A DNA stretch of 64,000 nt from Candidatus Omnitrophota bacterium. Its GTDB lineage: Bacteria > Omnitrophota > Gorgyraeia > 2-01-FULL-45-10. Made by a program: the position numbers and the translations under genes. The notes beneath the pieces were generated by a model. That model was given only the letters and a program-made list of their open reading frames with translations, searched no databases and had not been told where the DNA came from. Where the stretch lies: the NCBI GenBank assembly GCA_017993955.1, contig JAGOLR010000001.1, forward strand, positions 15,876 to 79,875, given 5' to 3'. Shown here in pieces: positions 6,102-62,213 of this stretch (its first letter is position 1; each line of letters begins with the position of its first letter).

Positions 6102-6116
6102 ATGAATTTGCGCTTT

Positions 6117-22108: not shown

Positions 22109-22131
22109 TGTCCACCTTTTAATTGGAGATA

Positions 22132-23149: not shown

Positions 23150-23163
23150 CTTGGGAATATGTT

Positions 23164-24537: not shown

Positions 24538-24540
24538 TTT

Positions 24541-25814: not shown

Positions 25815-25822
25815 ACGCGCAC

Positions 25823-26149: not shown

Positions 26150-28708
<2,559 letters not shown>

Positions 28709-28822
28709 AATTTGTTTGTTGGGTTTGTTGCGTTTATTGCGTTTGTTGAGTTATTTACATAACACAATAGACCCAAAAACGCAACGAACGCAATGAACTA
28801 ACCTGCAGATTAAGAGGAGACA

Positions 28823-31595: not shown

Positions 31596-31673
31596 GTCCC
31601 CATCGTCTAGTCTGGTCTAGGACATCAGATTTTCATTCTGACGACCCGGGTTCGAATCCCGGTGGGGACGCCA
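31596..31673 (+). tRNA. tRNA-Glu (anticodon UUC)
   Basis: Acceptor GTCCCCA..TGGGGAC, D-arm GTCT-AGTCTGGTCTA-GGAC, anticodon loop TTTTCAT, T-arm CCGGG-TTCGAAT-CCCGG, discriminator G, CCA encoded. Confidence 0.85.
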
Positions 31674-33283: not shown

Positions 33284-34365
33284 CCGAGGCATTCCCGAGC
33301 GGCATACAGGCATTTATTGAATCCGTCCAGTGGACATATGCCAAAACATATGCTACCACGTGGCCGCATTGGTATATTGTTAGAAAGAATGTCGACGAGA
33401 AGATGTTTGTTAGGCTTGTTGAGCATATAAGGGCTCATGGTTACGATGGGAAATTTTATAAACAGACGAACAAGTATATCGACGATGATAAATATAGTTA
33501 TTGGACCATGGGGGCTCCGATAGATGAGACCGAGGTTATTAACCGTTGCTTAAAAGAAGATACATATGAACGACGGCTGGCGAAAGGGACGTTGCCGAAG
33601 CAAGGAAAGACAGACGAGCCTGAGCCTGTGTACCAGGTTGATACATATTTCGATTTTCGGCTGGATGCGCATGGGAAAGATCCGGATACTCATAGCCCCG
33701 CCTTGAGGAGCTGCCACAAATTGCTCTGGAGTAAACCTCTCCCAGGCGGAAAGCTCTTTGAGTTGGTCGAGCGTGGAGCCTACCTATATTACAAATCGGA
33801 AGTCAAAGAATTCTGTCTGTCGAGCGATGCAGTGATTCCAACATTTAGATGGAATGATAAGATCCAAAACATCATCGCAGAGATTCCCGATGAGTTTGAT
33901 CGGTTCAGTGCTATTGGTTATACGATCGGTGGAATGATGGTGTTCCCGGCGCTAAAAGTAGGGAGAAAATGGACGATCAATCAAGCTCGCGGATGTCACC
34001 CCCGGATTAAAGATCGATTTGATCTCACGGTCGAGTGCATTCGGCGGTATTATTTACCTCTACCGGATCAAAAACGTAGCCCTCTGCTTGAAGTCTTGGC
34101 GCGCTATGACGATTTTTTTAACCTGTTTAAAGATTTTCGCGGATACGTCAAATTCTTTCTTTTGCAAGACATCGTCAATGACGAATGCACAGAGGTACAG
34201 TTTTTCGCGCCGTTCGATGATTTTAAGACATCACCGCTCCCCCAAAGCAAAGAGGCATACGAAAGATACATGAAGAAAGCCATTGAATTTATCGAAGCGC
34301 GAAACAAAAGAATCAGAGAATATCGCGATTGGTGTAAGCAGTCGGAAATTTCGGGGAGGAATTAA
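33280..34365 (+). CDS. Hypothetical protein (island gene 3); N-terminal region with tentative YDG/SRA-like motif
   Basis: 361 aa. TWPHWYIVRK ... RAHGYDGKFYKQTNKYIDDDKYSYWTMG loosely recalls the GGY.DD....F.YTG.GG signature of the SRA (YDG) base-flipping domain. Its start overlaps the upstream stop. Confidence 0.4.
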   Translation: MTEAFPSGIQAFIESVQWTYAKTYATTWPHWYIVRKNVDEKMFVRLVEHIRAHGYDGKFYKQTNKYIDDDKYSYWTMGAPIDETEVINRCLKEDTYERRLAKGTLPKQGKTDEPEPVYQVDTYFDFRLDAHGKDPDTHSPALRSCHKLLWSKPLPGGKLFELVERGAYLYYKSEVKEFCLSSDAVIPTFRWNDKIQNIIAEIPDEFDRFSAIGYTIGGMMVFPALKVGRKWTINQARGCHPRIKDRFDLTVECIRRYYLPLPDQKRSPLLEVLARYDDFFNLFKDFRGYVKFFLLQDIVNDECTEVQFFAPFDDFKTSPLPQSKEAYERYMKKAIEFIEARNKRIREYRDWCKQSEISGRN

Positions 34366-34368
34366 GTT

Positions 34369-35331
34369 ATGAAGCTGTTCAGGGCGCTAGACGATGATTT
34401 CATGGCGGATCTTTCAGGGGGGAAATTAAATTATATATTACAATTTGAAAGAGACTACAGGAAATCGCTCATCGTTGAAATTAGGGATAATTATTTGGAG
34501 CTGTATTTTTTGGGGCATGCGATAAAAGTTACACGGGACAAACAAGCGCGGTATTGTCTATCCGCTTCGACAACGTTCGACCCTTGCCGTGCTTCATGTA
34601 ATGAATTTAAGGACATTGTTACACGGGCAGGTTCCGGACGATGGAAGGTATATTTTAACGATATAAACGATTACGACCAGTTTTACCGTCTTATGAGAAC
34701 GGTTATTGCTGAAATAGTGATCCGCAAGGAGGGTGATATATCCGAAGGCGTTAGCGAGCTTAATCATCATGCAGATAACATGGCAATCGGAAAGAACGGC
34801 ATACTTGTTATCGACAAGCAGGTCGTATATCCCGGCATAAGGAAAAATAGAATCGATCTTTTGGGGGTTAGAAGGCTTCCCGGTAAAAAAGATCTGTTTA
34901 CATTTTCAGTCATTGAATTAAAAAATAAGAATAATCCCCAGATTGGGGAGGTTTTTACTCAAACTCGACGCTATATAGATCTTATATACGATAAGAGGGA
35001 AATCTATGAGGACTTTAGAAGTACCTACGCGACAGTTATACGTCAAAAAATCGAGTTAGGATTGATCAAGCGGATCAGATGCAATATTGCGCCCTGGGAT
35101 GCAATATCAAAGCAAGATATCGCAGGCCTAGTAATTCTCGACAATTTTAATATGAGAAGGGATCTCCAAGAGAACGGGCTGATGCAAAGAGCCCTGCGCG
35201 ATTGGAAGCAAATACCAAAAATCTATAACATAAAATTTTTCATGAAGACAAATGTCCTTGATGACACATTCTTTTTAGGATATCAGGATGCGTTAAAGCT
35301 ATACGCAGAATATCGAAGATGCAACTCATAA
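34369..35331 (+). CDS. Hypothetical protein with PD-(D/E)xK-like nuclease motif (island gene 4)
   Basis: 320 aa. ILVIDKQ ... RIDLLGV ... FSVIELKNK gives a D...ExK signature. Unknown N-terminal domain. Confidence 0.45.
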   Translation: MKLFRALDDDFMADLSGGKLNYILQFERDYRKSLIVEIRDNYLELYFLGHAIKVTRDKQARYCLSASTTFDPCRASCNEFKDIVTRAGSGRWKVYFNDINDYDQFYRLMRTVIAEIVIRKEGDISEGVSELNHHADNMAIGKNGILVIDKQVVYPGIRKNRIDLLGVRRLPGKKDLFTFSVIELKNKNNPQIGEVFTQTRRYIDLIYDKREIYEDFRSTYATVIRQKIELGLIKRIRCNIAPWDAISKQDIAGLVILDNFNMRRDLQENGLMQRALRDWKQIPKIYNIKFFMKTNVLDDTFFLGYQDALKLYAEYRRCNS

Positions 35332-36611
35332 TTCATCGCGGCACACATAATATAGGCGGGACATGCGTTGAGATTGCCACTGCGCAGTCCCGCATTATTA
35401 TTGACCTTGGCATGCCTCTCGAAGAGAATGGAGAGCGGTTTGATATTAGGAAATATAAACACCTTTCCGAGCCGGATCTGGTCAAGGAGGGCAAGCTACC
35501 CGATGTCAAAGGCCTCTATAAATGGGATACAGAATCAAAGAGAATCGACGCTATCCTTATTTCCCACTCCCATCAGGACCATTACGGCTATCTCTCCTAT
35601 GTAAATCCTGCTATCCCGATCTATGCGAGCGAGGGATGCAAAGAGCTCATGGCCGTTGCGTACTATTTCGGGCAGAGCAGATTTGATCCCGCAAACGTGA
35701 TCGTGAAGAAGCCGTGGGATACCTTTAAGGATATTGCGGGAATGGAAGTGACGCCATATCTGGTTGATCACTCGGCGGCCGATGCGTTTGCATATCTAAT
35801 CGAGGCAGATAAAAAGCGGATATTTTATGCGGGAGATTTCCGGGGGCATGGCAAAAAGAAGATCCTCTTTGAGAACATGCTTAAGCACCCACCAAAAAAC
35901 ATAGATCTTTTAATGCTTGAGGGGACCACCATTGAGGCAGCAAGAGTGGAGGAGCAGGCTTCCGAGCAGGACGTGGAAGAAAAGCTGGTGAGCTTGTTCG
36001 GCGAAAACAACAAGCTCGTTATATTCGCATGCTCTCATCAGAACATCGATCGATTAACAGTTCTTTATAATGCTTGCTTAAGGACCGATAAGACGCTGGC
36101 GATGATCCCATACACAGCATATATACTGCACAAGTTGAAGATACTTTCAGATAAGATTCCGCAGCATAGTATGAAAAACATTCGTGTTTTCTTCGAAGGC
36201 ACGCCGAATACGAAACGAGTTCTGGCAGACGAAGAACTTTGCGAAAAGCTCAGGAGGGTATATATCGGCTACGACGAGATCGTAGCCCATAAAGAGCGCA
36301 TGGTGGTGCTCGATTCCACATTTGTAAGGAAGCAGTTCGGAAGGCGTGGATATCTGAAAGATGCGATGCTGATATATTCGCTTTGGGACGGATACCTTGA
36401 AGATGTGAAACCATTCTGGGATGATCACGGCGTTCATATCAAAAAATTACATTCAAGCGGCCATGCGAGCGTAGACGAATTAAAACAATTTGTGAGTGCC
36501 CTTAAGCCGGCGCGTATTATTCCTATACACACCAAGCATCCGGAAAAATTTCACGAGCATTTTGGTGATATAGTGATGAAGGTTTCAGATGGAGAGCGGG
36601 TAAATTTGTGA
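35319..36611 (+). CDS. Metallo-beta-lactamase-fold beta-CASP-type nuclease (RNase J/CPSF-like) (island gene 5)
   Basis: 430 aa. The N-terminal G-rich segment (HRGTHNIGGTCVEI) and the HSHQDH, DHS and GDF motifs match the MBL fold. SSGHAS and PIHTKHPE match beta-CASP motifs B and C. It overlaps the upstream gene by 13 nt. Confidence 0.6.
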   Translation: MQLIIHRGTHNIGGTCVEIATAQSRIIIDLGMPLEENGERFDIRKYKHLSEPDLVKEGKLPDVKGLYKWDTESKRIDAILISHSHQDHYGYLSYVNPAIPIYASEGCKELMAVAYYFGQSRFDPANVIVKKPWDTFKDIAGMEVTPYLVDHSAADAFAYLIEADKKRIFYAGDFRGHGKKKILFENMLKHPPKNIDLLMLEGTTIEAARVEEQASEQDVEEKLVSLFGENNKLVIFACSHQNIDRLTVLYNACLRTDKTLAMIPYTAYILHKLKILSDKIPQHSMKNIRVFFEGTPNTKRVLADEELCEKLRRVYIGYDEIVAHKERMVVLDSTFVRKQFGRRGYLKDAMLIYSLWDGYLEDVKPFWDDHGVHIKKLHSSGHASVDELKQFVSALKPARIIPIHTKHPEKFHEHFGDIVMKVSDGERVNL

Positions 36612-51008: not shown

Positions 51009-53168
51009 ATGGTCAATAAAAGATCGGGCACCTTTTTTGATTCTATATTAATTCTGTCATTTCTAATAATATCCCAATTGTTTTACCCAGCAAGCCAAGC
51101 TCATGCCCAACCCCCCGCTACCCAAGTAGAAAGAGCTACATACCAGACAGACCAGTTCGGTAACCAAGCCGAAGCAAAAGCCAAATCGATGCTCAGAGGC
51201 CGCCCTGCCCCTATAACCGAGGCTGAAGAACCGGAAGTCGAAGATACCGATAAATTCCTGGTCAAAAAGATAAATCTGGAAGGCTGCGAAGCATTTCCGC
51301 CTGATAGCTTTGCCGAGATCGTGTCAAAATATGAAAATAAGGAGATAGGCCTTAATGCCATACAGCGGCTTTGCAAGAAGATAGAAAGGGAATACCTTAA
51401 ACGAGGGGTCATAGCTGCCGTATTCCCGCCTCCGCAGGATATAAAAGAGGGAGTTTTGACGCTCAAGGTCATCGAAGCTAAGATGGGAGAACTGGAGATA
51501 GGCAAGGCCATGTGGTTTAATAGTGATCGGCTGAAATACTATTGGCCTATCAAGTCTGGCGAGGTATTAAGGTATGACAAGATATCCAAAAGCATCCAGC
51601 TCATGAACAAAAATCCCGACCGCGAAGTAAAGGCCGCTCTGCATGCGGGAGAAAAGACCGGCACTACCGATGTATCGCTTACTCCTTATACTCAGGTGCC
51701 TATACACCCCAGCTTTACATATGACAACGACGGGTCTGCCCCGACTGGCACATTGAGGACCGGTTTTGGCATAAGGGATAATAATTTTTTGAATAATGAC
51801 GATATGTTAATGGCCGGTTATACTTACGGTAAGGACTTTGACAGCATATATGCCTATCACAATCTTCCTATAAGTTATTCTGGAGCATCCCTTCTTTACG
51901 GCTTCAGTAAAAGCGTATCGACCCCCATGAAAGATTTCCAGCCGTTCGACATGAGGACCTGGGCCGACAAGCTCGATTTCTCGGTGCACCAGGATATCTA
52001 TAAAAAAGACGAGTATCTTGGGGAGGTATATATACAATTTTCCGCCCAGGATAAAAGGACATATGCGAATACCGGGGGCCCTTTTAATAGCGGCGGCGGC
52101 ACTATAAATAAAGACAGGCTGCGGACGCTTATACTGGGCGGGACTTACCTTAAAAGGGCCGTGGGCGTTACTGCTCTGGTGACCCCGCAGTTTTCTCAAG
52201 GTCTTGATATATTGGGCGCCAGCCCAGAACACGACCCTTATCTTACTAGAGGCGCGCCGCCGGTTTATTCGAAATTTGTAACGACGATGATGACTAAGGC
52301 GGCCCTTCCATTTAATCTGAACCAAAATCTTAAGATAACATCGCAATTTGCTTCTTGCAAACTCAACCCATCCGAAGGCTTAAGCCTGGGAGGCATAGAC
52401 TCCGTAAGGGGATATCCCCCCGGAGACGTTATATTGGATAACGGGATACTGACAAACTACGAGATAACAAGCCCCATATTTTTTGTGCCGGAAGAATGGC
52501 GCCTGCCTTATGCCCAAAAACCATTACGGGAAGATTTCCAGGCTGTTGCATTTATCGATTATGGTTACGGAAAGCGGAGAGGGGAATTAAAGAACTACAA
52601 CGAGGTGGGCATAGGCCAAGGACTTCGTTTTAACTTCTATAATCAGGCCAACGTCCGCCTGGAGTTCGGGTACCCTATAGGCGATCACCCTTACAATAAC
52701 GGCAGGGCTTGGTTCTTCCATTTCGCGGTTAATTTTAACGGTACCCTGCCGGAAGAGATGGAGAGGGTGTCGAAGGCGATGGACGAAGCCCGCGTTAAGA
52801 AGTTTGCCTGGGAGCTTTTGGAAGAGGAGATGAAGCGCCCGGATAGCCCGGTAAAGGAGTTTATGTATAGGGGGCTTGCTGCGGCCCAACTTGCCGAAGA
52901 AGAAGGTCGCCTTGAGGATGCGAGATCGCTATACGAAAAGGTCCGGACCATGGGGAATATTTTGTATAAGCAAGCTGAGGACTATGTGAGAGGATTGAAA
53001 GAGCGCGAAGAAGAGCTGAAGTGCGAAAACGAAAAAGCCGCGTCTTTATACGAATCCGGTAAACTCGAAGAAGCCAGGGAGATATGGGAAAGAGTGACGA
53101 AAGACGCGAAACCGGCGCCTTTTGTCCTAGACCTTGAAGGCATCAAAGCGATAAGTAAGAACAAATGA
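51009..53168 (+). CDS. ShlB/FhaC-type (TpsB-like) POTRA outer-membrane transporter with C-terminal helical/TPR-like extension
   Basis: Signal peptide, then a POTRA-like KKINLEGCEAFPPDSFAEIVSKYENKEIGLNAIQRLCKKIEREYLKRG, then a beta-barrel region ending near residue 570. A roughly 150-aa charged helical tail follows. Confidence 0.5.
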   Translation: MVNKRSGTFFDSILILSFLIISQLFYPASQAHAQPPATQVERATYQTDQFGNQAEAKAKSMLRGRPAPITEAEEPEVEDTDKFLVKKINLEGCEAFPPDSFAEIVSKYENKEIGLNAIQRLCKKIEREYLKRGVIAAVFPPPQDIKEGVLTLKVIEAKMGELEIGKAMWFNSDRLKYYWPIKSGEVLRYDKISKSIQLMNKNPDREVKAALHAGEKTGTTDVSLTPYTQVPIHPSFTYDNDGSAPTGTLRTGFGIRDNNFLNNDDMLMAGYTYGKDFDSIYAYHNLPISYSGASLLYGFSKSVSTPMKDFQPFDMRTWADKLDFSVHQDIYKKDEYLGEVYIQFSAQDKRTYANTGGPFNSGGGTINKDRLRTLILGGTYLKRAVGVTALVTPQFSQGLDILGASPEHDPYLTRGAPPVYSKFVTTMMTKAALPFNLNQNLKITSQFASCKLNPSEGLSLGGIDSVRGYPPGDVILDNGILTNYEITSPIFFVPEEWRLPYAQKPLREDFQAVAFIDYGYGKRRGELKNYNEVGIGQGLRFNFYNQANVRLEFGYPIGDHPYNNGRAWFFHFAVNFNGTLPEEMERVSKAMDEARVKKFAWELLEEEMKRPDSPVKEFMYRGLAAAQLAEEEGRLEDARSLYEKVRTMGNILYKQAEDYVRGLKEREEELKCENEKAASLYESGKLEEAREIWERVTKDAKPAPFVLDLEGIKAISKNK

Positions 53169-53184: not shown

Positions 53185-54279
53185 ATGAATTTAAAGCTTT
53201 ATTTTATCATATCTATATTTGTTTCATTTTTGATAGCCATGCCGGCGCCTTATATGGTTTTTGCGCAAGACAAAAGGATGGAGACCGATGAAGGCATGGT
53301 AATAGAAGAGACTCACGTCAAGACCATTAAAGATGCGGACGGGACGAGCCCTGGCGGGATATTGGAAGCGCCAAAGCCCGAAGGGTCGCTGGGGGGAGAA
53401 TCTGGCGAATCCGCATCTGCCGCTACGGAGGAAGAGATCATACCCGATGAGACCAAGATCAAGATGGATGAATCCAAGATAGAGGCGATAATACCATCTT
53501 ACACGTTCGGGATGAAACGTCTGATGAAGAGCGCGGAAAAGAGCCTGGAGAGGGTAAAAAAAGAGATCACTAAGCGCAAGAAGGCCGGGAATAAGACCAA
53601 GGCCGAGGAAGTAAAAGACGAAAAACCTCAGGTTGCCGATCAAGATGATGGAGGCAAAAAGGATACAACACCCGGAACGGTCGAGAAAAAAAGATCCGGC
53701 TCATACTCAACTAGCTGTCTTAATCCTTCTAAGCCGGAAAGACGGAAATGCGAAGTCTCTTCCAAAAAAAGGGGTTTAGAGGCGTGCGCCTCCGGGCGTA
53801 TGCGCGGATCTAAACGTCCGGAATGCGCCGGTAATAAAAGATCCGGATCGGCAATCTGTAAGAAGGTGATTTGTAAATCTGACGATGAAGCCGCGCTCAA
53901 GTCTCAGGCCGCGCGCGCAAAAGAAGTCTCTAAAAATTCCGGCGCAAATAATAGCGACGAGGAAAGGCTGCTGGAAAAGATCGCCAGGCAGGAAGCCGAT
54001 ATGAAAAGCGAACAGGAGCGCTTTGCCCGCCAGAGAGCCAAATATGTAGGCGAAGGACCCGGCGACGGCGCAAACCTGCCCGACCAGGCTAAACAGGAAG
54101 AGGCCATGAAGGCCGAGCAGGAGAGATTTGCCCGTGATCGTGCCCGCTATACGACTAAAGTGCCGGAGATAGGAAGCGAGCAGATTATAAAGACATGGGA
54201 GAAGTATGGCGTGGCTACAAAAGAGGAGATAGCGCGGGAGCGAGAGTATTTGGAGGAGGAAAAGGGTAAAGCAAAATAA
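53185..54279 (+). CDS. Secreted low-complexity protein with an 8-Cys cluster and tandem QE(E/A)(A/D)MK(A/S)EQERFAR(D/Q)RA(R/K)Y repeats
   Basis: Signal peptide, an acidic and basic Lys-rich region, 8 Cys in residues 177-231, and two repeats of about 40 aa. Confidence 0.4.
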   Translation: MNLKLYFIISIFVSFLIAMPAPYMVFAQDKRMETDEGMVIEETHVKTIKDADGTSPGGILEAPKPEGSLGGESGESASAATEEEIIPDETKIKMDESKIEAIIPSYTFGMKRLMKSAEKSLERVKKEITKRKKAGNKTKAEEVKDEKPQVADQDDGGKKDTTPGTVEKKRSGSYSTSCLNPSKPERRKCEVSSKKRGLEACASGRMRGSKRPECAGNKRSGSAICKKVICKSDDEAALKSQAARAKEVSKNSGANNSDEERLLEKIARQEADMKSEQERFARQRAKYVGEGPGDGANLPDQAKQEEAMKAEQERFARDRARYTTKVPEIGSEQIIKTWEKYGVATKEEIAREREYLEEEKGKAK

Positions 54280-54338
54280 TAATTTGACATCGCCCGGGTA
54301 TTGGGCTAAAATAAATAAAATTAATAAACCTTTTAAAC

Positions 54339-54418
54339 CCAGTCCCGTGAGGCTGGAAAGGGAGAGCGAAGATGGAAACTGATCCCGTTTATCTATTTAT
54401 AGATAGGCGGGTTTTTTG
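54339..54418 (+). promoter_or_regulatory. PyrR-binding anti-antiterminator loop plus terminator (pyr attenuator)
   Basis: AGUCCCGUGAGGCU at 54341-54354 matches the PyrR box ARUCCNGNGAGGYU. A terminator hairpin CCCGTTTATCTAT-tta-TAGATAGGCGGG plus TTTTTTG follows at 54384-54418, just upstream of pyrR. Confidence 0.7.
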
Positions 54419-54441
54419 TTATAAGGCCGTCCGGAGCGCCT

Positions 54442-54990
54442 ATGAACTTTAAAGAGAAGTCCCGTATACTCGATAAGGATTCCATGGAAAAGACGCTTGA
54501 GCGTCTAGCCCATGAGATAATAGAACGTTCAGATGACATGGGAAAGGTTGCTTTGGTCGGGATAAAAAACCGGGGAGCCTATCTTGCGGGGAGGATCGCG
54601 GATAAGATAACCAGGATGACTTCTAAGCGTCCGCTTGTAGGGGCGTTGGATATAACCTTATATAGAGATGATCTTACGCAAGCCTGGGAACAACCGGTAG
54701 TCCATGCTACCGAGATCGATTTCGATATAAACGGGTTGAAGATAATACTCGTAGACGACGTGCTTTATACCGGGCGAACCGTAAGGTGCGCGCTGGACGC
54801 CCTTATAGATTATGGCAGGCCCGGATGCATAGAACTGGCTGTTTTGGTAGACCGGGGGCACAGGGAGCTTCCTATAAGGGCCGATTACGTGGGGAAGAAC
54901 GTGCCCACGGCAAAAGATGAAACGGTTGAGGTGCGTCTTGTCGAATGTGACGGCAAAGACGAAGTCGCCCTTTGCGAAAGGGAGAAGTGA
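54442..54990 (+). CDS. pyrR: Bifunctional pyrimidine operon regulator/uracil phosphoribosyltransferase PyrR
   Basis: PRTase motif ILVDDVLYTGRTVRCALDAL. 182 aa. Confidence 0.9.
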   Translation: MNFKEKSRILDKDSMEKTLERLAHEIIERSDDMGKVALVGIKNRGAYLAGRIADKITRMTSKRPLVGALDITLYRDDLTQAWEQPVVHATEIDFDINGLKIILVDDVLYTGRTVRCALDALIDYGRPGCIELAVLVDRGHRELPIRADYVGKNVPTAKDETVEVRLVECDGKDEVALCEREK

Positions 54991-54997
54991 CCAGGTA

Positions 54998-55939
54998 ATG
55001 AATAAGAAGACGGTTTGGGCAAAAAAAGACCTCTTGGGACTCGAGCATCTCTCGAAGGAAGAGATAGAGCATATACTTTATACGGCCGATAGCTTTAAAG
55101 AGGTCACCACCAGGCAGATAAAGAAGGTACCCGCTTTGCGCGGAAAGACCGTAGTCAACCTTTTCTATGAACCATCGACGAGAACCCGCACATCGTTCGA
55201 GCTGGCCGCAAAACGCCTTTCGGCGGATGTCGTTAATATCGAGGTAGAGGCCTCGAGCGTCAAGAAGGGAGAGACCCTTATCGACACCGGACGGAATATA
55301 GAGGCGCTTAAGATAGACGTTATAGTAGTGCGCCACAACTGTTCCGGCGCGCCCAATATACTTGCCCGGTCTGTCCGGTCCAGCGTCGTCAATGCCGGCG
55401 ACGGTTGGCACGAGCATCCGACCCAGGCACTTCTCGATATGTTTACTTTAAAGTCAAAGCTCGGCCGCATCGAGGGCCTCAAGGTGAGTATTATAGGCGA
55501 CATTGCGCATTCCCGCGTATGCCGGTCGAACATATGGGGGCTCACAAAGCTCGGCGCTCAGGTCACGGTATGCGCCCCCAGGATACTGATACCCGAGCAG
55601 ATAGAGAAGATGGGCGTTAAGGCTACTGACGATATAAACGAAGCGCTTGCGGGCGCGGACGCGATAAACGTTCTCAGGATGCAGTTCGAGAGGGATTCGG
55701 CAGTGGCCTTTCCGTCGAGACTGGAATATTATAAAAAATACGGCATTACGGCCGAAAGGTTAAAGAATTGCAAAAAAGATATAGTGGTAATGCATCCGGG
55801 GCCGATAAACCGCGGGGTAGAGATGTCAAGTGAAGTGGCGGACGGGCCCAATTCGGTTATATTAGAGCAAGTCACCAATGGGATTGCGGTAAGGATGGCC
55901 GTTTTATATCTGGTGGCTCATGCCAAGGGTAAGGCATAA
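54998..55939 (+). CDS. pyrB: Aspartate carbamoyltransferase catalytic subunit
   Basis: STRTR and HPTQ motifs. The ATG at 54998 gives MNKKTVWAKKDLLGLEHLS. The ORF track extends upstream, overlapping pyrR. Confidence 0.9.
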   Translation: MNKKTVWAKKDLLGLEHLSKEEIEHILYTADSFKEVTTRQIKKVPALRGKTVVNLFYEPSTRTRTSFELAAKRLSADVVNIEVEASSVKKGETLIDTGRNIEALKIDVIVVRHNCSGAPNILARSVRSSVVNAGDGWHEHPTQALLDMFTLKSKLGRIEGLKVSIIGDIAHSRVCRSNIWGLTKLGAQVTVCAPRILIPEQIEKMGVKATDDINEALAGADAINVLRMQFERDSAVAFPSRLEYYKKYGITAERLKNCKKDIVVMHPGPINRGVEMSSEVADGPNSVILEQVTNGIAVRMAVLYLVAHAKGKA

Positions 55940-55942
55940 GAG

Positions 55943-57232
55943 ATGGAAAAATATCTTATAAAGAACGGAAGGCTTATAGACCCGCTTGAAAAACTTGACG
56001 CGGTAAACGACATATTGATCGTGGGAGATAAGATAGAGAAGATAGGTCCTGGTATAGACGATCCCGAAGCTAAGGTTGTCGACGCATCCGGTAAGATAAT
56101 TTCCCCCGGATTCGTCGATATGCATGCGCACTTGCGAGAGCCGGGGAGAGAGGACAAAGAGACCATATATACCGGCACTCGCTCAGCAGTACAAGGAGGG
56201 TTTACGGCGATAGCCTGCATGCCTAATACCGAGCCCGCCATAGACCGGGCGGATACCGTTAATCTCGTAAAGGCCATAGCCGTAAAAGACGGTATATGTG
56301 ACGTATTTGTAATAGGCGCTATAACGGAAAACAGAGAAGGTAACAAGATATCAGATCTTAAGTCTCTTAAAAAGGCCGGCGTTGTCGGAGTTTCCGACGA
56401 CGGTGCATCCGTGGAAGACCCGGAAATCATGCTAAATGCCCTTAAGGAGGCTAGAAAAGAGGGGATCCTGGTGATAGCGCACTGTGAAGACCCCGGGCTT
56501 TCTCTCAAGGGCGTTATGAACAAAGGCCTGGTTTCTACTAAAATGGGATTGCGCGGTATGCCAAAAGAGTCGGAATATGCCAGAGTGAAGCGCGATGTAG
56601 AGCTTGCCGCAAAGGCCGGTGCCGCTATACATATTGCTCACATAAGCTGCATGGAATCGGTTGATATTGTAAGGCAGGCCAAGGCCAAAGGCATCAGGGT
56701 CACGGCTGAGACGTGTCCGCATTATTTTGCCATGACCGAAGATTGCTGCGTCACTTATGACACGAATACAAAGATGAACCCTCCCTTGCGCACTTCCGAA
56801 GATCTCAAGGCCATAAAAGAAGGCCTTAAAGACGGGACGATAGATGCGATAGCTACAGATCATGCGCCTCATACCGATTGCGAGAAGGATGTAGAGTTTG
56901 ACTATGCACCTTTCGGGATAATAGGGCTCGAAACGGCTCTAGGCATCGCGGTAATAGAGCTTATAGACAAAAAAGTGCTTACATGGCCGGAGCTTATATC
57001 CAAGCTCTCTTCAAATCCTTCCAGGATATTGGGTTTGAAAGGGCCGACATTACTTAAAGGCGCGAAAGCCGATGTTGCAATAATAGATCCGTCGGTTGAG
57101 TATACGTATACCAGAGATAACATCCGTTCTAAATCGAAAAACTCGCCTTTTATAGGATGGCAGCTTAAGGGAAGGGCCGAAAAGGTATTCGTTTCCGGTA
57201 AGATAGTATTAGGAGGCGCCGCCCCGGCCTGA
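55943..57232 (+). CDS. pyrC: Dihydroorotase
   Basis: Amidohydrolase DMHAHLREPG. 429 aa. Confidence 0.9.
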   Translation: MEKYLIKNGRLIDPLEKLDAVNDILIVGDKIEKIGPGIDDPEAKVVDASGKIISPGFVDMHAHLREPGREDKETIYTGTRSAVQGGFTAIACMPNTEPAIDRADTVNLVKAIAVKDGICDVFVIGAITENREGNKISDLKSLKKAGVVGVSDDGASVEDPEIMLNALKEARKEGILVIAHCEDPGLSLKGVMNKGLVSTKMGLRGMPKESEYARVKRDVELAAKAGAAIHIAHISCMESVDIVRQAKAKGIRVTAETCPHYFAMTEDCCVTYDTNTKMNPPLRTSEDLKAIKEGLKDGTIDAIATDHAPHTDCEKDVEFDYAPFGIIGLETALGIAVIELIDKKVLTWPELISKLSSNPSRILGLKGPTLLKGAKADVAIIDPSVEYTYTRDNIRSKSKNSPFIGWQLKGRAEKVFVSGKIVLGGAAPA

Positions 57233-57250
57233 AGATAAAACGAGGGTTTC

Positions 57251-58483
57251 ATGCCTTTCATCGTCGATCTCCATATACATTCAAGATATTCGCGCGCTAC
57301 GGCCAAGGATATGGACATAGAAAATCTCGTTAAGTGGGCCAAGATAAAAGGTATTGCGATGCTGGGCTCGGGAGATTTCACTCATCCGGCCTGGCTTGCG
57401 GAACTGAAAAAGAAGTTATCCCCGAAGTCCCGCGGAGTCTATGACCACGACGGGGTGGATTTTATACTGACCGGTGAAGTCTCAAATATATATTTTAAGG
57501 CGGGCCGGACGCGAAAAGTCCATAATATAATAGCTGTACCGGATTTTGAGGCGGCTGAAGAAGCGGCCGAGGCTCTTTCAGATTACGGAGACCTTAATTC
57601 AGACGGGCGCCCGATACTGCATCTGGAATGCGACAGGATGGCCAGGATGCTTTTCGGGATACATCCCGACATACTTATAATGCCGGCCCATGCCTGGACG
57701 CCGCATTTCAGCATATTCGGATCGAACTCAGGTTTCGATTCCCCCGCAGAATGTTTTGAAGGGGAGTTGCCGAAAATATTTTCGATAGAGACCGGGCTTT
57801 CGAGCGACCCAGAGATGAACTGGAGATGGTCGGCGCTCGACAGGTTCTGCCTTACATCGCATTCTGACGCTCATTCGCCGCACAAGATAGGGCGGGAGGC
57901 GAATGTATTTAAAGACAATATAGACTATCCGACGCTTGTAGAAGTGCTTAAGACCAAAGACAATAAAAGGTTCCTTTACACCATAGAATTTTTCCCCGAA
58001 GAGGGGAAGTACCACTGGGACGGCCATCGCGCTTGCGGCGAACGCTTATCCCCGGAAGACGCTATTCGTTCTAACAATCTTTGCCCCTCTTGCGGCAAAA
58101 AATTGACCATAGGTGTAATGCACAGGCTCTCAAGCCTGGCCGATAGGCCTTGCGGTTATGTCGACAAGAAGAGCCCGCGGTCTAAGAAATTAGTTCCGCT
58201 TGCTGAAATCATAGGGAGCGTGCTCGGGGTTTCGCCTGATTCTGTGTCGGTAGGTAAGGAATATTTTAAAATGATCAAAAATTTCGGGACAGAGTTCGGG
58301 GTATTGCTCGATGCTCCCGAAGAGGCCTTGCGGGAGAAATGCCTTCCCGGGGTGGCTCAAGGCGTAATTAATGTAAGAAGCGGCAACCTTGATATCGAAC
58401 CGGGATATGACGGCGAGTACGGTAAGGTAAACGTCTTGAAAAATGATAGTAACCGTAAGGATAAACAATTGAGTTTCTTGTAA
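57251..58483 (+). CDS. PHP-domain endonuclease Q-like protein (TIGR00375-type)
   Basis: N-terminal PHP domain (IVDLHIHSRYSRA), SDAHSP, zinc ribbon CPSCGKK, and LVPLAEIIG matching the EndoQ C-terminal region. 410 aa. Confidence 0.55.
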   Translation: MPFIVDLHIHSRYSRATAKDMDIENLVKWAKIKGIAMLGSGDFTHPAWLAELKKKLSPKSRGVYDHDGVDFILTGEVSNIYFKAGRTRKVHNIIAVPDFEAAEEAAEALSDYGDLNSDGRPILHLECDRMARMLFGIHPDILIMPAHAWTPHFSIFGSNSGFDSPAECFEGELPKIFSIETGLSSDPEMNWRWSALDRFCLTSHSDAHSPHKIGREANVFKDNIDYPTLVEVLKTKDNKRFLYTIEFFPEEGKYHWDGHRACGERLSPEDAIRSNNLCPSCGKKLTIGVMHRLSSLADRPCGYVDKKSPRSKKLVPLAEIIGSVLGVSPDSVSVGKEYFKMIKNFGTEFGVLLDAPEEALREKCLPGVAQGVINVRSGNLDIEPGYDGEYGKVNVLKNDSNRKDKQLSFL

Positions 58484-58497
58484 GAAAAGCACGGTTT

Positions 58498-59376
58498 TTG
58501 ACTCCGGACCCTAGACGAATGAAGCAGCTAAATACAAAAATAATTCATAACAAAAAAATAACGCCGCACCACTATAAGATGCGGCTAGAGTCCGGACATC
58601 TTGCTAAGCACTCTAACCCGGGGCAATTTGTGGAGGTCCGTTGTTCACACCATCCGGATCCTCTCCTGAGGCGTCCTCTGGGCGTTCACAGGATATTGCC
58701 GGATGGAATAGAGATTCTTTATGAGATCGTCGGGCGCGGGACAGAGTTGTTATCGCTAAAGAAAGCCGGAGAGGTTCTTGACGTGATCGGCCCTTTAGGT
58801 AATGGCTTCGGTATAAGGTCCATGGGCAATGGTTCACAGTCCACGGTTTTGGTTGCCGGTGGTATAGGGGTAGCGCCTTTGCTGGCGTTGGCGGAGAAAG
58901 TAGCGTATAGCGTAGAGCGCATAGCGGATAGGAAAAAAATAAAAGTTTTTATAGGCGCAAAAACCGCCTCGCATATATTATGCGCCGAAGAATTCAAAAA
59001 GTTGGGTTGCAAGGTTTATGTCGCAACCGAAAACGGTTCAAAAGGACATAAAGGGCTTATCACAGATTTACTCGACGGTTTTCTGCAATCAATGATTAAC
59101 GATCAACGATTAACGATCAACGAACGGCGAACGACGATATACGCTTGCGGCCCGACCGGTATGCTCAAAGCCGTTGCCGGGATCTCCGGAAGGCACGATA
59201 TCCCATGTCAGGTATCCCTGGAAGAACGCATGGCCTGCGGCGTAGGCGTTTGCCTTGGCTGCCCTGTCAAAATCCGTTCGGCACATACGATTAACGATGG
59301 ACGATCTACGATAAACGAATATAAGATGGTCTGTAAAGACGGTCCGGTCTTTGATGCGGACAGTATAGCTTGGTGA
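58498..59376 (+). CDS. pyrK: Dihydroorotate dehydrogenase electron-transfer subunit PyrK, carrying two short in-frame repeat-derived insertions
   Basis: FAD/NAD-binding fold with a C-terminal 2Fe-2S motif CGVGVCLGCPV...CKDGPVF. Insert-like segments INDQRLTINERRT and SAHTINDGRSTINE are encoded by ACGATTAACGAT-type repeats. Confidence 0.85.
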   Translation: MTPDPRRMKQLNTKIIHNKKITPHHYKMRLESGHLAKHSNPGQFVEVRCSHHPDPLLRRPLGVHRILPDGIEILYEIVGRGTELLSLKKAGEVLDVIGPLGNGFGIRSMGNGSQSTVLVAGGIGVAPLLALAEKVAYSVERIADRKKIKVFIGAKTASHILCAEEFKKLGCKVYVATENGSKGHKGLITDLLDGFLQSMINDQRLTINERRTTIYACGPTGMLKAVAGISGRHDIPCQVSLEERMACGVGVCLGCPVKIRSAHTINDGRSTINEYKMVCKDGPVFDADSIAW

Positions 59377-59403
59377 GAAAAGAAAAATTTTGTTATCGAT
59401 TAT

Positions 59404-59615
59404 TACTCCCGTGGTGGGTGTCTCGCGGGAACATCCGATTTTCCCCGGCGAGGAAAATCGGATTCGGTAAAATTGCTCGCTCTTTTGTGGCTGGGCTTTT
59501 GAACCGGGTGCTTGGATCACAGCTACGTGACTTTAGCACCCGGTTCAAACTGTGGCCACAAAAACCGTGCCCGCTCGCAATTTTAACGTCCCGCTTAACA
59601 CCCACCACGGGAGAT
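59404..59615. repeat. Nested perfect-palindrome element (MITE-like or structured RNA) in the pyrK-pyrD spacer
   Basis: A 16-nt perfect inverted repeat CTCCCGTGGTGGGTGT / ACACCCACCACGGGAG (59406-59421 and 59598-59613) encloses an ATCCGATTTTCC/GGAAAATCGGAT hairpin and a 12-bp GAACCGGGTGCT/AGCACCCGGTTC hairpin flanked by TTGTGGC/GCCACAA. Confidence 0.6.
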
Positions 59616-59677
59616 ATGGTGGGAAATAAAAATTTTTCATCGGGGAAATACAATTTCGTGATAAGCTTGAAGGCTAG

Positions 59678-60589
59678 ATGATGATGAAACCAAATCTTGC
59701 CGTAAAGATAGGAAGACTGAAATTAAAGAATCCCGTTATGGTGGCGTCCGGGACATTCGGCGAAGAGTACGGCGAGATGACGGATGTATCGAAACTTGGC
59801 GCTGTGGTCGCCAAGACCATAACGCTAAAGGCCAGGGTCGGTAATCCGCCTCCGCGTGTATGCGAAACAGATTCCGGCATGCTTAACTCAATAGGGCTGG
59901 AAAATAAAGGGGTGGAAGAGTTTATGTCCAGAAAACTTCTCGCCTTGAAAAAATTCCGCGTGCCGGTGGTGGTTAGTATAGCGGGTGAGTCCGAGGATGA
60001 ACTCGCGGAGCTGGCAAGCCGTCTCAAGGCGGTCGATGCCCTTGAGGTGAACCTGTCATGTCCCAACGTGAAACACGGCGCCCGCGAGGGGCTTATAGCC
60101 CAAGATGCCAGCGCAGTAGCGGCCTGTATTTCTGCTGTACGTAAAGCTACAAAAGCGCCCTTGATCGCCAAGCTCACGCCCAACGTTACGGATATAGCGA
60201 AGATAGCCGTTTCTGCAGAATCGGCCGGAGCCGATGCGGTCCTCGTAGCCAATACATTTTTCGGAATGGCAGTGGATATATATGCAAGGCGTCCAAAGCT
60301 GGGTAATATATGCGGGGGATTAAGCGGTCCGGCCATAAAACCTATGTCGCTTAAGATGGTGTGGGATACGGCGCGTAAGGTGAAAATACCGGTCATAGGC
60401 TGCGGCGGTATCATGGATTATAAAGATGCCGTGGAATTTATGCTCTGCGGAGCCTCCGCCATACAGGTGGGAACGGCGAATTTTGTAGCTCCGGACGCCT
60501 CCGCCGAAATAGTAAAAGGGATAGCAAGATATATGTCAAAAAACAAGATCGCTGATATAAGTAAATTAAGAGGAGCGCTTTTGGTATGA
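59678..60589 (+). CDS. pyrD: Dihydroorotate dehydrogenase catalytic subunit (class 1B)
   Basis: 303 aa with NPVMVASGTFG. It follows pyrK. Confidence 0.9.
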   Translation: MMMKPNLAVKIGRLKLKNPVMVASGTFGEEYGEMTDVSKLGAVVAKTITLKARVGNPPPRVCETDSGMLNSIGLENKGVEEFMSRKLLALKKFRVPVVVSIAGESEDELAELASRLKAVDALEVNLSCPNVKHGAREGLIAQDASAVAACISAVRKATKAPLIAKLTPNVTDIAKIAVSAESAGADAVLVANTFFGMAVDIYARRPKLGNICGGLSGPAIKPMSLKMVWDTARKVKIPVIGCGGIMDYKDAVEFMLCGASAIQVGTANFVAPDASAEIVKGIARYMSKNKIADISKLRGALLV

Positions 60590-61302
60590 GTCCAAAAGAT
60601 CGTTTGATAGTAGCCCTTGATGTGGATACAAAATCCCGGGCCCTTTCTTTGGCGGGAGAGTTAAAAGACAGCGTAGGATTTTTCAAAATAGGGCTTGAGC
60701 TCTTCAGTTCGTGCGGTCCTGATATCGTAAGACAGATAAGCGGAATCGGATGCAAGGTATTTCTCGATTTGAAATTTCACGATATCCCGACGACGGTTGC
60801 TAAGGCGGCCGTGTCAGTCACGGGTTTGGGGTCCTATATGTTCAATGTGCATGCCCTGGGCGGTTACGATATGATGAAACGATGCGGCGACGCCGTTAAG
60901 ACCGAAGCCGAACGCCTTAAAATCGCAAGACCAAAAGTGATTGCCGTGACCGTGCTTACCAGCATGGATCAGATTTCTTTGGAAAAGGTCGGGGTGGGTT
61001 GTGATATCAAGGAGGAGGTTATAAAACTTGCGCGTCTAGCAAAAGACGCAGGCCTTGACGGCGTAGTAGCCTCTCCGGAAGAGGCTCGCATGATAAGAGA
61101 TGACGCGGGAGACGATTTTATAATAGTGACGCCCGGCGTCAGGCCGTCCTGGGCCGCTGCCGACGATCAAAGGCGAGTGGCGACGCCGAAAGAGGCCGTA
61201 GATAACGGCGCAAGCTTCATAGTCGTGGGTAGGCCCATAACTGCCGCGGCGGATCCTGTAGAAGCGGCGGGGAAGATAATAAAAGAAATACGTTGTAGTT
61301 AA
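60586..61302 (+). CDS. pyrF: Orotidine 5'-phosphate decarboxylase
   Basis: 238 aa with LIVALDV and KFHDIPTT motifs. Confidence 0.88.
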   Translation: MSPKDRLIVALDVDTKSRALSLAGELKDSVGFFKIGLELFSSCGPDIVRQISGIGCKVFLDLKFHDIPTTVAKAAVSVTGLGSYMFNVHALGGYDMMKRCGDAVKTEAERLKIARPKVIAVTVLTSMDQISLEKVGVGCDIKEEVIKLARLAKDAGLDGVVASPEEARMIRDDAGDDFIIVTPGVRPSWAAADDQRRVATPKEAVDNGASFIVVGRPITAAADPVEAAGKIIKEIRCS

Positions 61303-61318
61303 TAGGACTTTAGAAATT

Positions 61319-61420
61319 CGTCATTGCGAGGGAGCCTTTCAGTTTTGTTAATGGCGACCGAAGCAATCTAAAAAAAGAGATTGCTTCGGCCTAACAAAGT
61401 TCGGCCTCGCAATGACAGTT
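61319..61420. repeat. Nested palindromic element in the pyrF-pyrE spacer
   Basis: Outer inverted repeat GTCATTGCGAGG / CCTCGCAATGAC encloses the hairpin GACCGAAGCAATCT-aaaaaaag-AGATTGCTTCGGCC. Confidence 0.55.
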
Positions 61421-61431
61421 ACGAGGTGAAT

Positions 61432-61995
61432 ATGACCGAGAAAGAAGTATTGGCGATTTTTGAAAAGCATAACGCGTTGCTCGCAGGCCATTTTAAGCTC
61501 TCGAGCGGCCTTCACAGCGAAAAGTATCTCCAATGCGCCCTCGTCCTGCAGTATCCCGACATGGCGGCCGCGCTTGCAAAAGCCCTTGCGGCCAAATTCA
61601 AAGGCATAGATGTCGTTGTGGGCCCTGCGCTTGGAGGGGTCACGCTTGCCTATGAGGTCGCGCGTGCGCTTGGCGTGAGGGGGCTCTTTACGGAGCGCCA
61701 GGAAGGTGTCATGATGCTTAGGCGCGGATTTTCGATAAAGCCCGGAGAAAAGGTGCTTGTCTGCGAAGATGTCGTCACGACCGGCAAATCCACGAAAGAG
61801 GTAATAGATGTCGTAAAGGCTGCCGGCGGGGTAGTAGCGGGAGTCGCAAGCGTCATAGACAGGAGCGAATCACCGGTAGATTTCGGCGTGCCTTTTCACT
61901 CGCTTGCCAAAGTGGCTGTTACCGCATATAAGGAAGACGGCTGCCCCATGTGCAAAAAGGGCCTTCCCGTTACAAAGCCGGGTTCTAGGAAATAG
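61432..61995 (+). CDS. pyrE: Orotate phosphoribosyltransferase
   Basis: PRTase motif VLVCEDVVTTGKS. The start MTEKEVLAIFEKH at 61432 lies inside the ORF-track ORF that begins at 61381. Confidence 0.85.
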   Translation: MTEKEVLAIFEKHNALLAGHFKLSSGLHSEKYLQCALVLQYPDMAAALAKALAAKFKGIDVVVGPALGGVTLAYEVARALGVRGLFTERQEGVMMLRRGFSIKPGEKVLVCEDVVTTGKSTKEVIDVVKAAGGVVAGVASVIDRSESPVDFGVPFHSLAKVAVTAYKEDGCPMCKKGLPVTKPGSRK

Positions 61996-62138: not shown

Positions 62139-62213
62139 GGGCAAGTAGCTCAATGGCGGAGCACTCGGTTTACATCCGAGTGGTTACAGGTTCGAGTCCT
62201 GTCTTGCCCACCA
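62139..62213 (+). tRNA. tRNA-Val (anticodon UAC)
   Basis: Acceptor GGGCAAG..CTTGCCC, D-arm GCTC-AATGGCG-GAGC, anticodon stem CTCGG/CCGAG with loop TTTACAT, T-arm ACAGG-TTCGAGT-CCTGT, ACCA. Confidence 0.8.

Follow-up and report, generated by a model that had tools for sequence, protein, structure and literature searches.

A bacterial-type Endonuclease Q gene in the PyrR-led pyrimidine operon of an Omnitrophota clade

Results

Organization of the locus

The window, a 64,000-nt stretch of a Candidatus Omnitrophota contig, contains a pyr operon on the plus strand in which an ORF at 57251..58483 is located between pyrC and pyrK. The features of the operon are listed below, with profile scores in bits.

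54284..54312, plus strand: sigma-70-type promoter-like site upstream of pyrR, TTGACA-17-TAAAAT, strong (11 of 12 matches)
54325..54418, plus strand: predicted PyrR-binding attenuator RNA (Rfam RF00515, 57.8 bits; gathering score 54)
54442..54990, plus strand: pyrR, regulator / uracil phosphoribosyltransferase (NCBIfam NF003549, 247.6 bits; cut-off 138)
55004..55939, plus strand: pyrB, aspartate carbamoyltransferase (NF002032, 414 bits; cut-off 263)
55943..57232, plus strand: pyrC, dihydroorotase (TIGR00857, 418 bits; cut-off 279)
57251..58483, plus strand: endoQ, predicted 410-aa bacterial-type Endonuclease Q (EndoQ; sequence and fold match to Pyrococcus furiosus EndoQ, PfuEndoQ)
57251..57994, plus strand: N-terminal PHP-fold catalytic domain of EndoQ, aa 1-248 (residue mapping onto PfuEndoQ)
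57995..58195, plus strand: Zn-binding domain of EndoQ, aa 249-315 (ligands H259, C262, C278, C281)
58196..58483, plus strand: C-terminal helical domain of EndoQ, aa 316-410, and stop codon (alignment to 5zb8 304-384; model helices 317-377)
58519..59376, plus strand: pyrK, dihydroorotate dehydrogenase B electron-transfer subunit (start probably ATG 58519; alternative TTG 58498)
59678..60589, plus strand: pyrD, dihydroorotate dehydrogenase 1B catalytic subunit (NF005574, 375.7 bits)
60586..61302, plus strand: pyrF, OMP decarboxylase (NF001273, 280.6 bits)
61381..61995, plus strand: pyrE, orotate phosphoribosyltransferase, last gene of the operon (TIGR01367, 222 bits)

The endoQ ORF runs from an ATG to a TAA stop codon and encodes 410 aa, with a Shine-Dalgarno-like GAGGG 4 nt 5' of the start codon. 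The first-pass annotation had placed a 410-aa gene between pyrC and pyrK, at spacings of 18 and 14 nt. The ORF was confirmed, both flanking genes were identified by profiles, and the distance of 18 nt from the end of pyrC to the start of endoQ was correct. The 14-nt distance to pyrK corresponds to the TTG start at 58498, and the ATG at 58519 gives 35 nt. PyrK homologues from 25 related loci aligned only from residue 6-8 of the TTG-start ORF, the point corresponding to ATG 58519; a spacer of 35 nt is therefore more likely. Overlaps of 4-17 nt between pyrC and endoQ were common in relatives. The GC content, GC3 and codon usage of endoQ resembled those of the neighbouring pyr genes, which ruled out a recent horizontal transfer of the gene. 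A palindrome between pyrK and pyrD had no Rfam match and no further copies. A tRNA was found at 62139-62210, 3' of pyrE.

Leader region and transcription

An alignment of leaders from about 20 related loci showed the TTGACA hexamer and the -10 box to be conserved. The attenuator includes a terminator with a 12-bp stem at 54384-54411 followed by TTTTTT (stem and T6, 54384-54420). As shown by direct alignment, the binding-loop motif CCGGTCC.GAGAGGCCGG.AAAGGAGA and the terminator were kept across related leaders. Nine related loci gave no PyrR match at the Rfam gathering threshold, and the conservation of motif and terminator in the alignment indicates that these misses reflect a limit of model sensitivity and not absence of the element. 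The RF00515 match, the promoter-like site, the terminator and the position of pyrR as the first gene agree with the earlier description of the operon as PyrR-attenuated. By the established PyrR mechanism, a PyrR-led operon is induced at low uridine nucleotides.

Neither a second PyrR site nor any other RNA family was detected inside the operon at E≤1. From pyrR to pyrE, the plus strand contained three terminator-like matches, all weak, with 5-6-bp stems and located in pyrB, endoQ and pyrK; the total count of such matches was close to the shuffle expectation. Because the spacers are of 18 and at most 35 nt, the genes overlap in relatives, and neither a strong internal terminator nor another PyrR site is seen in the operon, endoQ is very probably co-transcribed with the pyr genes under PyrR control. 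Weak promoter-like matches occur within the pyrC region (for example at 56517-56544), and a promoter internal to pyrC may serve as an alternative start for endoQ.

Identification of the product as EndoQ

In a phmmer search against the PDB, residues 6-397 of the 410-aa protein were aligned with residues 6-384 of the PfuEndoQ chain (E 2.9e-56, 194 bits). The AlphaFold model of the protein (pLDDT 82.9) matched 5zb8_A in Foldseek with E 6e-35 and TM 0.84/0.86 over 401 columns, and 7k30_A with TM 0.80. Homologues with 93% identity to the window protein carry the NCBI name 'endonuclease Q family protein'. The EndoQ-like nature of the protein proposed in the first-pass annotation was thus upheld by sequence, by fold and by the retention of all key residues.

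The same annotation had pointed to the TIGR00375/EndoQ family for comparison. TIGR00375 is an NCBIfam hypothetical equivalog model with a whole-protein curated cut-off of 326.6 bits. The window protein aligned with it end to end (6-393 against 3-374 of 374) and scored 188 bits, below the cut-off. The full-length match to EndoQ stands and membership of TIGR00375 does not: judged from its sequence, the protein is related to that model as a divergent member of the bacterial branch, and is not an equivalog by the NCBI threshold. A Pfam scan of the 410-aa protein returned no family at E≤0.01, PHP included. Homologues carry a precomputed PF27218.1 assignment, which the scan did not return for the window protein. 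The label 'PHP domain' is given here on account of the homology to PfuEndoQ and the fold, Pfam being silent.

After the EndoQ chains, the next Foldseek matches were PHP esterases, with TM 0.31-0.33 and E 3e-3 or worse. Stand-alone PHP phosphoesterases such as RNase AM/TrpH (7UG9), BAD_1165 (3O0F) and TM0559 (2ANU) share the PHP barrel and its His/Asp/Glu metal site with the window protein, but they match only its N-terminal domain and have neither the Zn-binding nor the C-terminal helical domain. A best homology to histidinol-phosphatase-type enzymes, which had been named as evidence against EndoQ, was not seen. Identity as a histidinol phosphatase or stand-alone PHP esterase was rejected, as there was no Pfam or NCBIfam match and the best non-EndoQ folds were at the TM values above. 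Sequence and model together indicate that the product of 57251-58483 is an ordinary EndoQ-family enzyme of the bacterial type.

Catalytic, pocket and zinc residues

Mapped onto PfuEndoQ, the putative metal ligands of the window protein are H8, H10, E76, H91, H147 and D206, to which R120 and H208 are added; they match Pfu His8, His10, Glu76, His84, His139, Asp193, Arg114 and His195, respectively. The base pocket is formed by T150, E180, G182 and L183 (Pfu Thr142, Glu167, Gly169 and Leu170), and the equivalents of His139 and Asp193 are kept there too. The roles of active-site and pocket residues were taken from PMC5961232, where mutation of catalytic, pocket or contact residues of PfuEndoQ abolished or lowered activity. 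We aligned 81 bacterial EndoQ sequences, 28 linked to pyr genes and 53 unlinked. Pfu positions H8, H10, E76, H84, H139, D193, H195, R114, T142, E167, G169, L170, K243 and Y244 were invariant in all 81. The zinc ribbon and the SDAHSP motif expected from the first-pass annotation were both present on alignment, the latter at aa 205-210. The Zn site reads H259-x2-C262 ... C278-x2-C281, that is, H-C-C-C, where PfuEndoQ has C4. The first ligand was His in 81 of 81 bacterial sequences and is Cys in Pfu. On the alignment no ligand is lost; one differs in type.

P. furiosus EndoQ (PF1551; PDB 5ZB8, 7K30-7K33) has the same three-domain architecture as the window protein, with 33-34% identity over about 400 columns and TM 0.84. 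The metal ligands, the R114 and H195 equivalents and the base-pocket residues are identical. The window protein differs in a 7-aa insertion after E76, in Thr and His at the pocket main-chain positions L168 and N191, and in His and Thr for W144 and K276. Past the last aligned position (aa 397), the window protein of 410 aa has about 13 residues more; Pfu EndoQ, at its full length of 424 aa, extends about 40 residues beyond the aligned region. The PCNA-interacting region of the Pfu enzyme is reportedly placed at its C-terminal end. Unlike P. furiosus EndoQ, the window protein belongs to a bacterial host and its gene lies in a pyr operon.

The setting among pyr genes raises the question of a new function, in which the clade protein would have left DNA repair and would serve pyrimidine metabolism or salvage, with nucleotides or RNA as its substrates. 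The PHP-fold relatives include RNase AM (7ug9) and BadPE (3o0f), both weak fold matches, and two positions seem to point the same way: Pfu W144 is His in 26 of the 28 pyr-linked members, and Pfu K320 varies within the clade. However, the protein keeps its Zn-binding domain and its C-terminal DNA-binding domain at full length, and the pocket residues and the DNA contacts K243 and Y244 are invariant. His at W144 also occurs in 15 of the 53 unlinked homologues, and at thresholds of 90%/10% no column separated the pyr-linked clade from the other bacterial EndoQs. We consider such a change of function very improbable.

Synteny and evolution of the EndoQ-pyr linkage

EndoQ homologues were numerous (8000 matches at E≤1e-10) and came from Omnitrophota, Patescibacteria, Desulfobacterota, Latescibacterota, Bacillota and others. 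We listed 80 loci, 27 from Omnitrophota species and 53 from other phyla (at least ten). Among those listed, endoQ was located within the pyr operon in 27 of 27 Omnitrophota species loci, so that the pyrC-X-pyrK arrangement, for which a check in relatives had been suggested, is a constant feature. Nineteen loci span the complete operon, and all have, like the window, the order pyrR-pyrB-pyrC-endoQ-pyrK-pyrD-pyrF-pyrE; in the remaining 8, contig ends interrupt the operon and the order agrees as far as the sequence reaches. None of the 53 listed loci from other phyla had pyr neighbours, and the association is as unusual as first supposed. The EndoQ-pyr synteny across the Omnitrophota clade is a new result; a literature search found nothing on a link between EndoQ and pyr genes or between PyrR and repair.

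The 28 pyr-linked EndoQs formed one monophyletic group, and for this reason the linkage counts as a single evolutionary event. Mean identity within the clade was 63% for EndoQ, 58% for PyrC, 60% for PyrD and 65% for PyrE, a similar degree of conservation for EndoQ and the pyr enzymes. Outside Omnitrophota, all-against-all clustering of flanking ORFs at the 53 loci found no pyrimidine-related neighbour and no neighbour conserved at more than 9 loci. The commonest was a membrane protein (9/53), and a PolX-like gene adjoined EndoQ in 5/53.

These data agree with a neutral origin, in which an ordinary EndoQ gene was inserted once after pyrC in the clade ancestor and has stayed there as a frozen accident. 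The position would have lasted since disruption of a tight operon carries a cost, the gene would borrow a steadily active housekeeping promoter, and changes in EndoQ level brought about by PyrR would be non-adaptive. The single origin of the linked genes, its confinement to one group among so many phyla, the scarcity of any conserved neighbour elsewhere (at best 9 of 53 loci) and the lack of clade-specific residue changes all speak for it. The history of the slot speaks against it. One linked locus alone, L023, additionally has carA-carB, between pyrC and pyrK. At 6 of the 27 loci, which are dispersed across the clade tree, a Mut7-C gene (150 aa, PF01927, E 1e-41) immediately precedes endoQ. 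In other parts of the operon the spacers have changed, with insertions between pyrK and pyrD. The slot has thus been remodelled repeatedly, carAB being lost except in L023 and Mut7-C in most lineages, yet endoQ has held its place in all 27 species, at protein identities that span 52-69%. We regard the neutral origin as a serious rival, with a substantial minority share of the probability.

The Mut7-C neighbour suggests a further alternative, in which endoQ is the remnant of a two-gene nuclease cassette (a Mut7-C PIN-like RNase and EndoQ) inserted between pyrC and carA and serving to turn over or scavenge nucleic acids when pyrimidines are limiting, and not to repair lesions. The scattered Mut7-C copies and the induction of the operon at low uridine nucleotides expected from the PyrR mechanism would fit. 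But endoQ is present throughout, whereas the window and 21 of the 27 loci lack Mut7-C, and the Mut7-C gene does not adjoin endoQ in the sister clade or elsewhere; no copy of carA/carB or of the Mut7-C gene occurs elsewhere in the 64,000-nt window. Moreover, characterised EndoQs are lesion-specific nicking enzymes and not bulk nucleases (PMC4357722, PMC5961232). This alternative is the least probable of those considered.

Possible role of EndoQ in the pyr operon

We favour, at a probability of roughly two in three, the reading that the gene encodes a functional bacterial-type EndoQ, made from the PyrR-attenuated pyr mRNA and fixed as a member of the operon in this clade. The EndoQ of Bacillus pumilus / B. 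subtilis, cited in PMC5961232 and PMC6202378, is reported to share with the archaeal enzyme the nicking 5' of dU, dI, dX and AP sites, which indicates that the bacterial branch can be active. The published view places EndoQ in 'a limited number of bacteria', with activity of the Bacillus enzyme in vitro; the present matches show the family to be widespread in uncultivated phyla. Listed EndoQ loci derived from Bacillota (for example L059, L071 and L078) are without pyr neighbours, unlike the window.

According to the favoured reading, the enzyme would act as a metal-dependent nuclease that flips uracil, hypoxanthine, xanthine or an AP site into a pocket between the PHP fold and the Zn domain and nicks the strand immediately 5' of the lesion. 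One promoter and one transcription attenuator responsive to PyrR/UMP would serve the whole operon, and EndoQ would therefore be produced from the same mRNA as the enzymes of UMP synthesis. Its level would rise when PyrR senses low uridine nucleotides. As a rationale, the capacity for repair of uracil and AP sites may be scaled to de novo pyrimidine flux and to DNA replication, when misincorporation of dUMP and deamination of single-stranded cytosine would be most likely. It is plausible that uracil repair is coupled to pyrimidine supply through the operon in this way.

The stronger proposal, that PyrR and the leader RNA set the level of a uracil/hypoxanthine/AP-site nuclease and so tune repair to pyrimidine flux, is tentative and on present evidence doubtful. 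Two points stand against the favoured reading as well. Functional coupling would show most strongly in an independent recurrence of the pyr linkage, and the 53 listed loci of other phyla have none; and the direction of the regulation, with more EndoQ at low uridine nucleotides, has no obvious repair logic. If the stronger proposal is true, EndoQ would be the first lesion-specific repair enzyme under a pyrimidine attenuator, and it might also be the main route of uracil removal in these small-genome bacteria. If it only hitch-hikes, the result is a correct annotation and a tidy case of operon accretion, with limited wider consequence. In either case, one large clade has EndoQ hard-wired into an operon that is very probably PyrR-controlled. 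The linkage provides a concrete hypothesis tying uracil-in-DNA surveillance to pyrimidine nucleotide supply, and a natural set of at least 27 orthologues for biochemistry.

Comparison with the Bacillus-type pyr operon

The window operon shares its pyr gene order, with pyrR first, with the Bacillus-type operon pyrR-pyrP-pyrB-pyrC-pyrAA-pyrAB-pyrK-pyrD-pyrF-pyrE. Both have a PyrR-binding leader RNA with a terminator (RF00515) and pyrK/pyrD of type 1B. The Bacillus operon has three attenuators, whereas the window operon has one, and no pyrP. Also unlike Bacillus, the window operon contains no carAB, nor do those of the other loci showing the endoQ-pyrK junction; L023 has carA-carB between pyrC and pyrK as in Bacillus. 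The slot after pyrC is occupied in the window by the gene of a predicted DNA-repair nuclease.

The endoQ gene and its product

The gene occupies a complete reading frame between two pyrimidine biosynthesis genes, as the first-pass annotation had placed it:

55943-57232, plus strand: pyrC, dihydroorotase (NCBIfam/Pfam models)
57251-58483, plus strand: endoQ, ATG start, TAA stop, 410 aa
58519-59376, plus strand: pyrK, electron-transfer subunit of dihydroorotate dehydrogenase B

Four bases 5' of the endoQ ATG there is a GAGGG ribosome-binding motif. The spacer between pyrC and endoQ is 18 nt, as first reported. The 14-nt spacer reported on the other side is obtained only if pyrK starts at TTG 58498; a 35-nt spacer with a start at ATG 58519 is more likely, because PyrK homologues from 25 related loci align only from residue 6-8 of the TTG-58498 ORF, residue 8 being ATG 58519. 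PyrK carries low-complexity inserts of unrelated sequence at the same two or three sites across species (window, 58519-59376; Omnitrophota loci L012, 9313-10272, and L023, 9626-10498). These inserts, INDQRLTINERRT and TINDGRSTINE in the window and RGTRDDGRGTRDEGRR in L023, lengthen PyrK by about 30 aa relative to the NCBIfam profiles.

The proposed EndoQ-like identity held up. A phmmer search against all PDB chains returned Pyrococcus furiosus Endonuclease Q (PfuEndoQ; 5ZB8, 7K30-33) as the sole match (E 2.9e-56; query residues 6-397, chain residues 6-384). An AlphaFold2 model built on 37 homologues (pLDDT 82.9, pTM 0.83) superposed on 5zb8_A with TM 0.84/0.86 across 401 columns; for the DNA complex 7k30_A the TM was 0.80. 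Stand-alone PHP phosphoesterases came next among the fold matches (TM 0.31-0.33, E>=3e-3). With PfuEndoQ as the best match and the motifs intact, a histidinol-phosphatase-type PHP enzyme was rejected. TIGR00375 aligned end to end but scored 188 bits, under its 326.6-bit cut-off, and a Pfam scan with a local copy gave no match, which points to a divergent EndoQ of the bacterial branch that TIGR00375 does not count as an equivalog. The homologue search yielded 8000 matches at E<=1e-10, of which the closest, at 93% identity, is from Candidatus Omnitrophota MAGs; NCBI calls it 'endonuclease Q family protein'. The enzyme adds a new member to a known family, whose name near-identical proteins in public MAGs already carry.

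Residues were compared in an alignment of the window protein, 80 bacterial homologues and PfuEndoQ. The metal ligands H8, H10, E76, H84, H139 and D193 (Pfu numbering) are invariant in all 81 bacterial sequences, one N-terminally truncated locus being without the H8 and H10 columns. The same holds for R114 and H195 (both essential), for T142, E167, G169 and L170 in the pocket, and for K243 and Y244, which contact DNA. The roles of all these residues, metal ligands included, are known from Pfu mutagenesis (PMC5961232). The expected SDAHSP motif (aa 205-210) and zinc ribbon (H259-x2-C262 ... C278-x2-C281) are both present. All bacterial sequences have His as their first zinc ligand (H-C-C-C), whereas Pfu has C4. 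Further differences from PfuEndoQ are W144 to His in 26 of the 28 members of the window's clade, K276 to Thr, and K320, which is not conserved within that clade. No alignment column separates the clade whose endoQ lies within the pyr operon from unlinked bacterial EndoQs, and at this level there is no sign of changed function. That the protein has become a nucleotide or RNA phosphoesterase is very improbable, because all DNA-repair determinants are intact.

The pyr operon and its predicted control

Eight plus-strand genes, pyrR, pyrB, pyrC, endoQ, pyrK, pyrD, pyrF and pyrE, occupy 54442-61995. The pyr genes were assigned with NCBIfam and Pfam models, all except pyrK passing at least one curated cut-off. 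The following elements lie 5' of pyrR:

54284-54312, plus strand: promoter-like site, TTGACA-17-TAAAAT, 11/12 match to the sigma-70 consensus
54325-54418, plus strand: predicted PyrR-binding site (Rfam RF00515, 57.8 bits; gathering score 54)
54384-54420, plus strand: 12-bp stem followed by TTTTTT, within the PyrR-binding site

No second PyrR site was found at E<=1. Between pyrR and pyrE the plus strand holds only three terminator-like matches, all weak with 5-6-bp stems (in pyrB, endoQ and pyrK), and the total count of such matches is near the shuffle expectation. Given this single upstream leader, the straightforward reading is that endoQ would be co-transcribed with the pyr genes under PyrR attenuation, in line with the placement first proposed.

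Directly 5' of the pyr promoter lie genes for a ShlB/FhaC-type two-partner-secretion transporter (51009-53168) and a 364-aa Lys/Glu-rich low-complexity protein with no Pfam match (53185-54279).

The 300-nt pyrK-pyrD spacer is filled by an imperfect palindrome of about 255 nt (59383-59636) with nested inverted repeats, including the perfect 16-mer CTCCCGTGGTGGGTGT. Its fold energy is -137.8 kcal/mol (z = -12.9). Rfam gave no match to it at E<=1, the window holds a single copy, and none of the 80 related loci has it. This element may be a MITE-like insertion or else a structured RNA within the operon.

Conservation of the linkage

When one genome per GTDB species was scanned, 216 EndoQ relatives were returned, and the window's eight operon proteins were compared by tblastn with the best 80 loci. 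Among these, pyrC-endoQ-pyrK was found in 27/27 Omnitrophota loci (EndoQ identity 52-69%), some from MAGs mislabelled Planctomycetia. The 19 loci covering the whole operon have the order pyrR-pyrB-pyrC-endoQ-pyrK-pyrD-pyrF-pyrE; the other 8 end at contig ends and show the same order as far as covered. An adjacent pyr gene was found in none of the 53 loci from other lineages, which include Patescibacteria, Desulfobacterota, Latescibacterota, Aminicenantes, WOR-3, Bacillota and MAGs labelled Micrarchaeota.

The spacing between pyrC and endoQ is <=24 nt in 19/26 loci, 11 of which overlap by 4-17 nt. The leader is conserved clade-wide, with -35 and -10 boxes, the binding loop CCGGTCC.GAGAGGCCGG.AAAGGAGA and a terminator. 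RF00515 scored under the gathering score in 9/9 loci tested for leaders 5' of pyrR (L002, L004, L005, L012, L014, L021, L023, L024, L025); when the leaders are aligned, however, both loop and terminator are clearly preserved, so the model under-detects Omnitrophota PyrR leaders. EndoQ equals the pyr enzymes in degree of conservation (identity to the window averages 63%, versus 58% for pyrC, 60% for pyrD, 58% for pyrF and 65% for pyrE), and GC content and codon usage of endoQ are indistinguishable from those of its neighbours.

The 28 linked sequences (27 loci and the window) grouped as a single clade in a Pfu-rooted neighbour-joining tree, with a Desulfobacterota-type group as sister, so the linkage arose once. 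This single origin, the lack of recurrence in other phyla and the lack of a conserved EndoQ neighbour outside the clade favour the main rival explanation, neutral hitch-hiking after one ancestral insertion, which we regard as a serious alternative, though less likely than the preferred reading given below.

EndoQ homologues at 46-53% identity occur across many uncultivated bacterial phyla and in MAGs labelled Micrarchaeota, with a PolX-type polymerase/PHP gene downstream in 5 of the 53 loci. This spread greatly exceeds the 'limited number' of bacterial homologues or 'few bacterial genera' of papers describing EndoQ as archaeal (PMC4357722, PMC5961232, PMC6202378). Those papers make no mention of its genomic context. 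The conserved placement of endoQ within a PyrR-attenuated operon appears undescribed, because searches for an EndoQ-pyr, PyrR-repair or Omnitrophota-pyrimidine link gave nothing relevant.

Remodelling around endoQ

L023, one of two basal clade members, has carA and carB between endoQ and pyrK (5173-9547), and thus shows the gene order of the Bacillus-type pyr operon plus an endoQ insertion behind pyrC. The window lacks carAB, and so does the operon in all the other loci showing the endoQ-pyrK junction. In 6/27 Omnitrophota loci, a 150-aa Mut7-C PIN-like RNase-domain gene with a Zn-ribbon (PF01927, E 1e-41) lies between pyrC and endoQ. These loci (L001, L012 at 7367-7819, L014, L015, L018, L021) are scattered over the clade, which suggests an ancestral pyrC-mut7C-endoQ arrangement with repeated loss. 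The gene is absent from the window, and because it is usually absent a Mut7-C/EndoQ scavenging cassette is likewise very improbable. Other lineages, window included, carry insertions between pyrK and pyrD.

The operon has thus been remodelled repeatedly while endoQ kept its position in 27/27 species, a pattern that favours selection for this position without proving it. Our preferred reading, with a probability of about 0.65, is that endoQ encodes a working lesion-specific nuclease expressed from the pyr mRNA, its level tracking the uridine-nucleotide pool as read by PyrR. The putative adaptive rationale is that the cell would match its repair of misincorporated dUMP, deaminated cytosine and AP sites to de novo pyrimidine flux and replication. 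That PyrR control of a repair nuclease is physiologically meaningful is possible but rather unlikely. The linkage is a matter of gene context, not a new mechanism.

Other features of the window

The chromosomal origin region lies at 20519-31492, with yidC on the minus strand followed by:

23164-24537, plus strand: dnaA
24708-25814, plus strand: dnaN
26165-28708, plus strand: gyrB
28823-31492, plus strand: gyrA

The pyr-endoQ operon is origin-proximal and co-oriented with replication, since it shares a strand with dnaA and follows it at a distance of about 30 kb. The segment 31596-36611, which could be a tRNA-adjacent mobile or defence island, contains in order:

31596-31670: tRNA
32007-32720: PD-(D/E)XK nuclease (PDDEXK_4), followed by a small ORF
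33280-34365: DUF6994, followed by a 320-aa ORF without assignment
35319-36611: MBL-fold/RMMBL hydrolase

A 6S RNA (RF00013, 70.5 bits) lies on the minus strand at 7446-7606, between an MgsA-like AAA+ ATPase gene and pheT.
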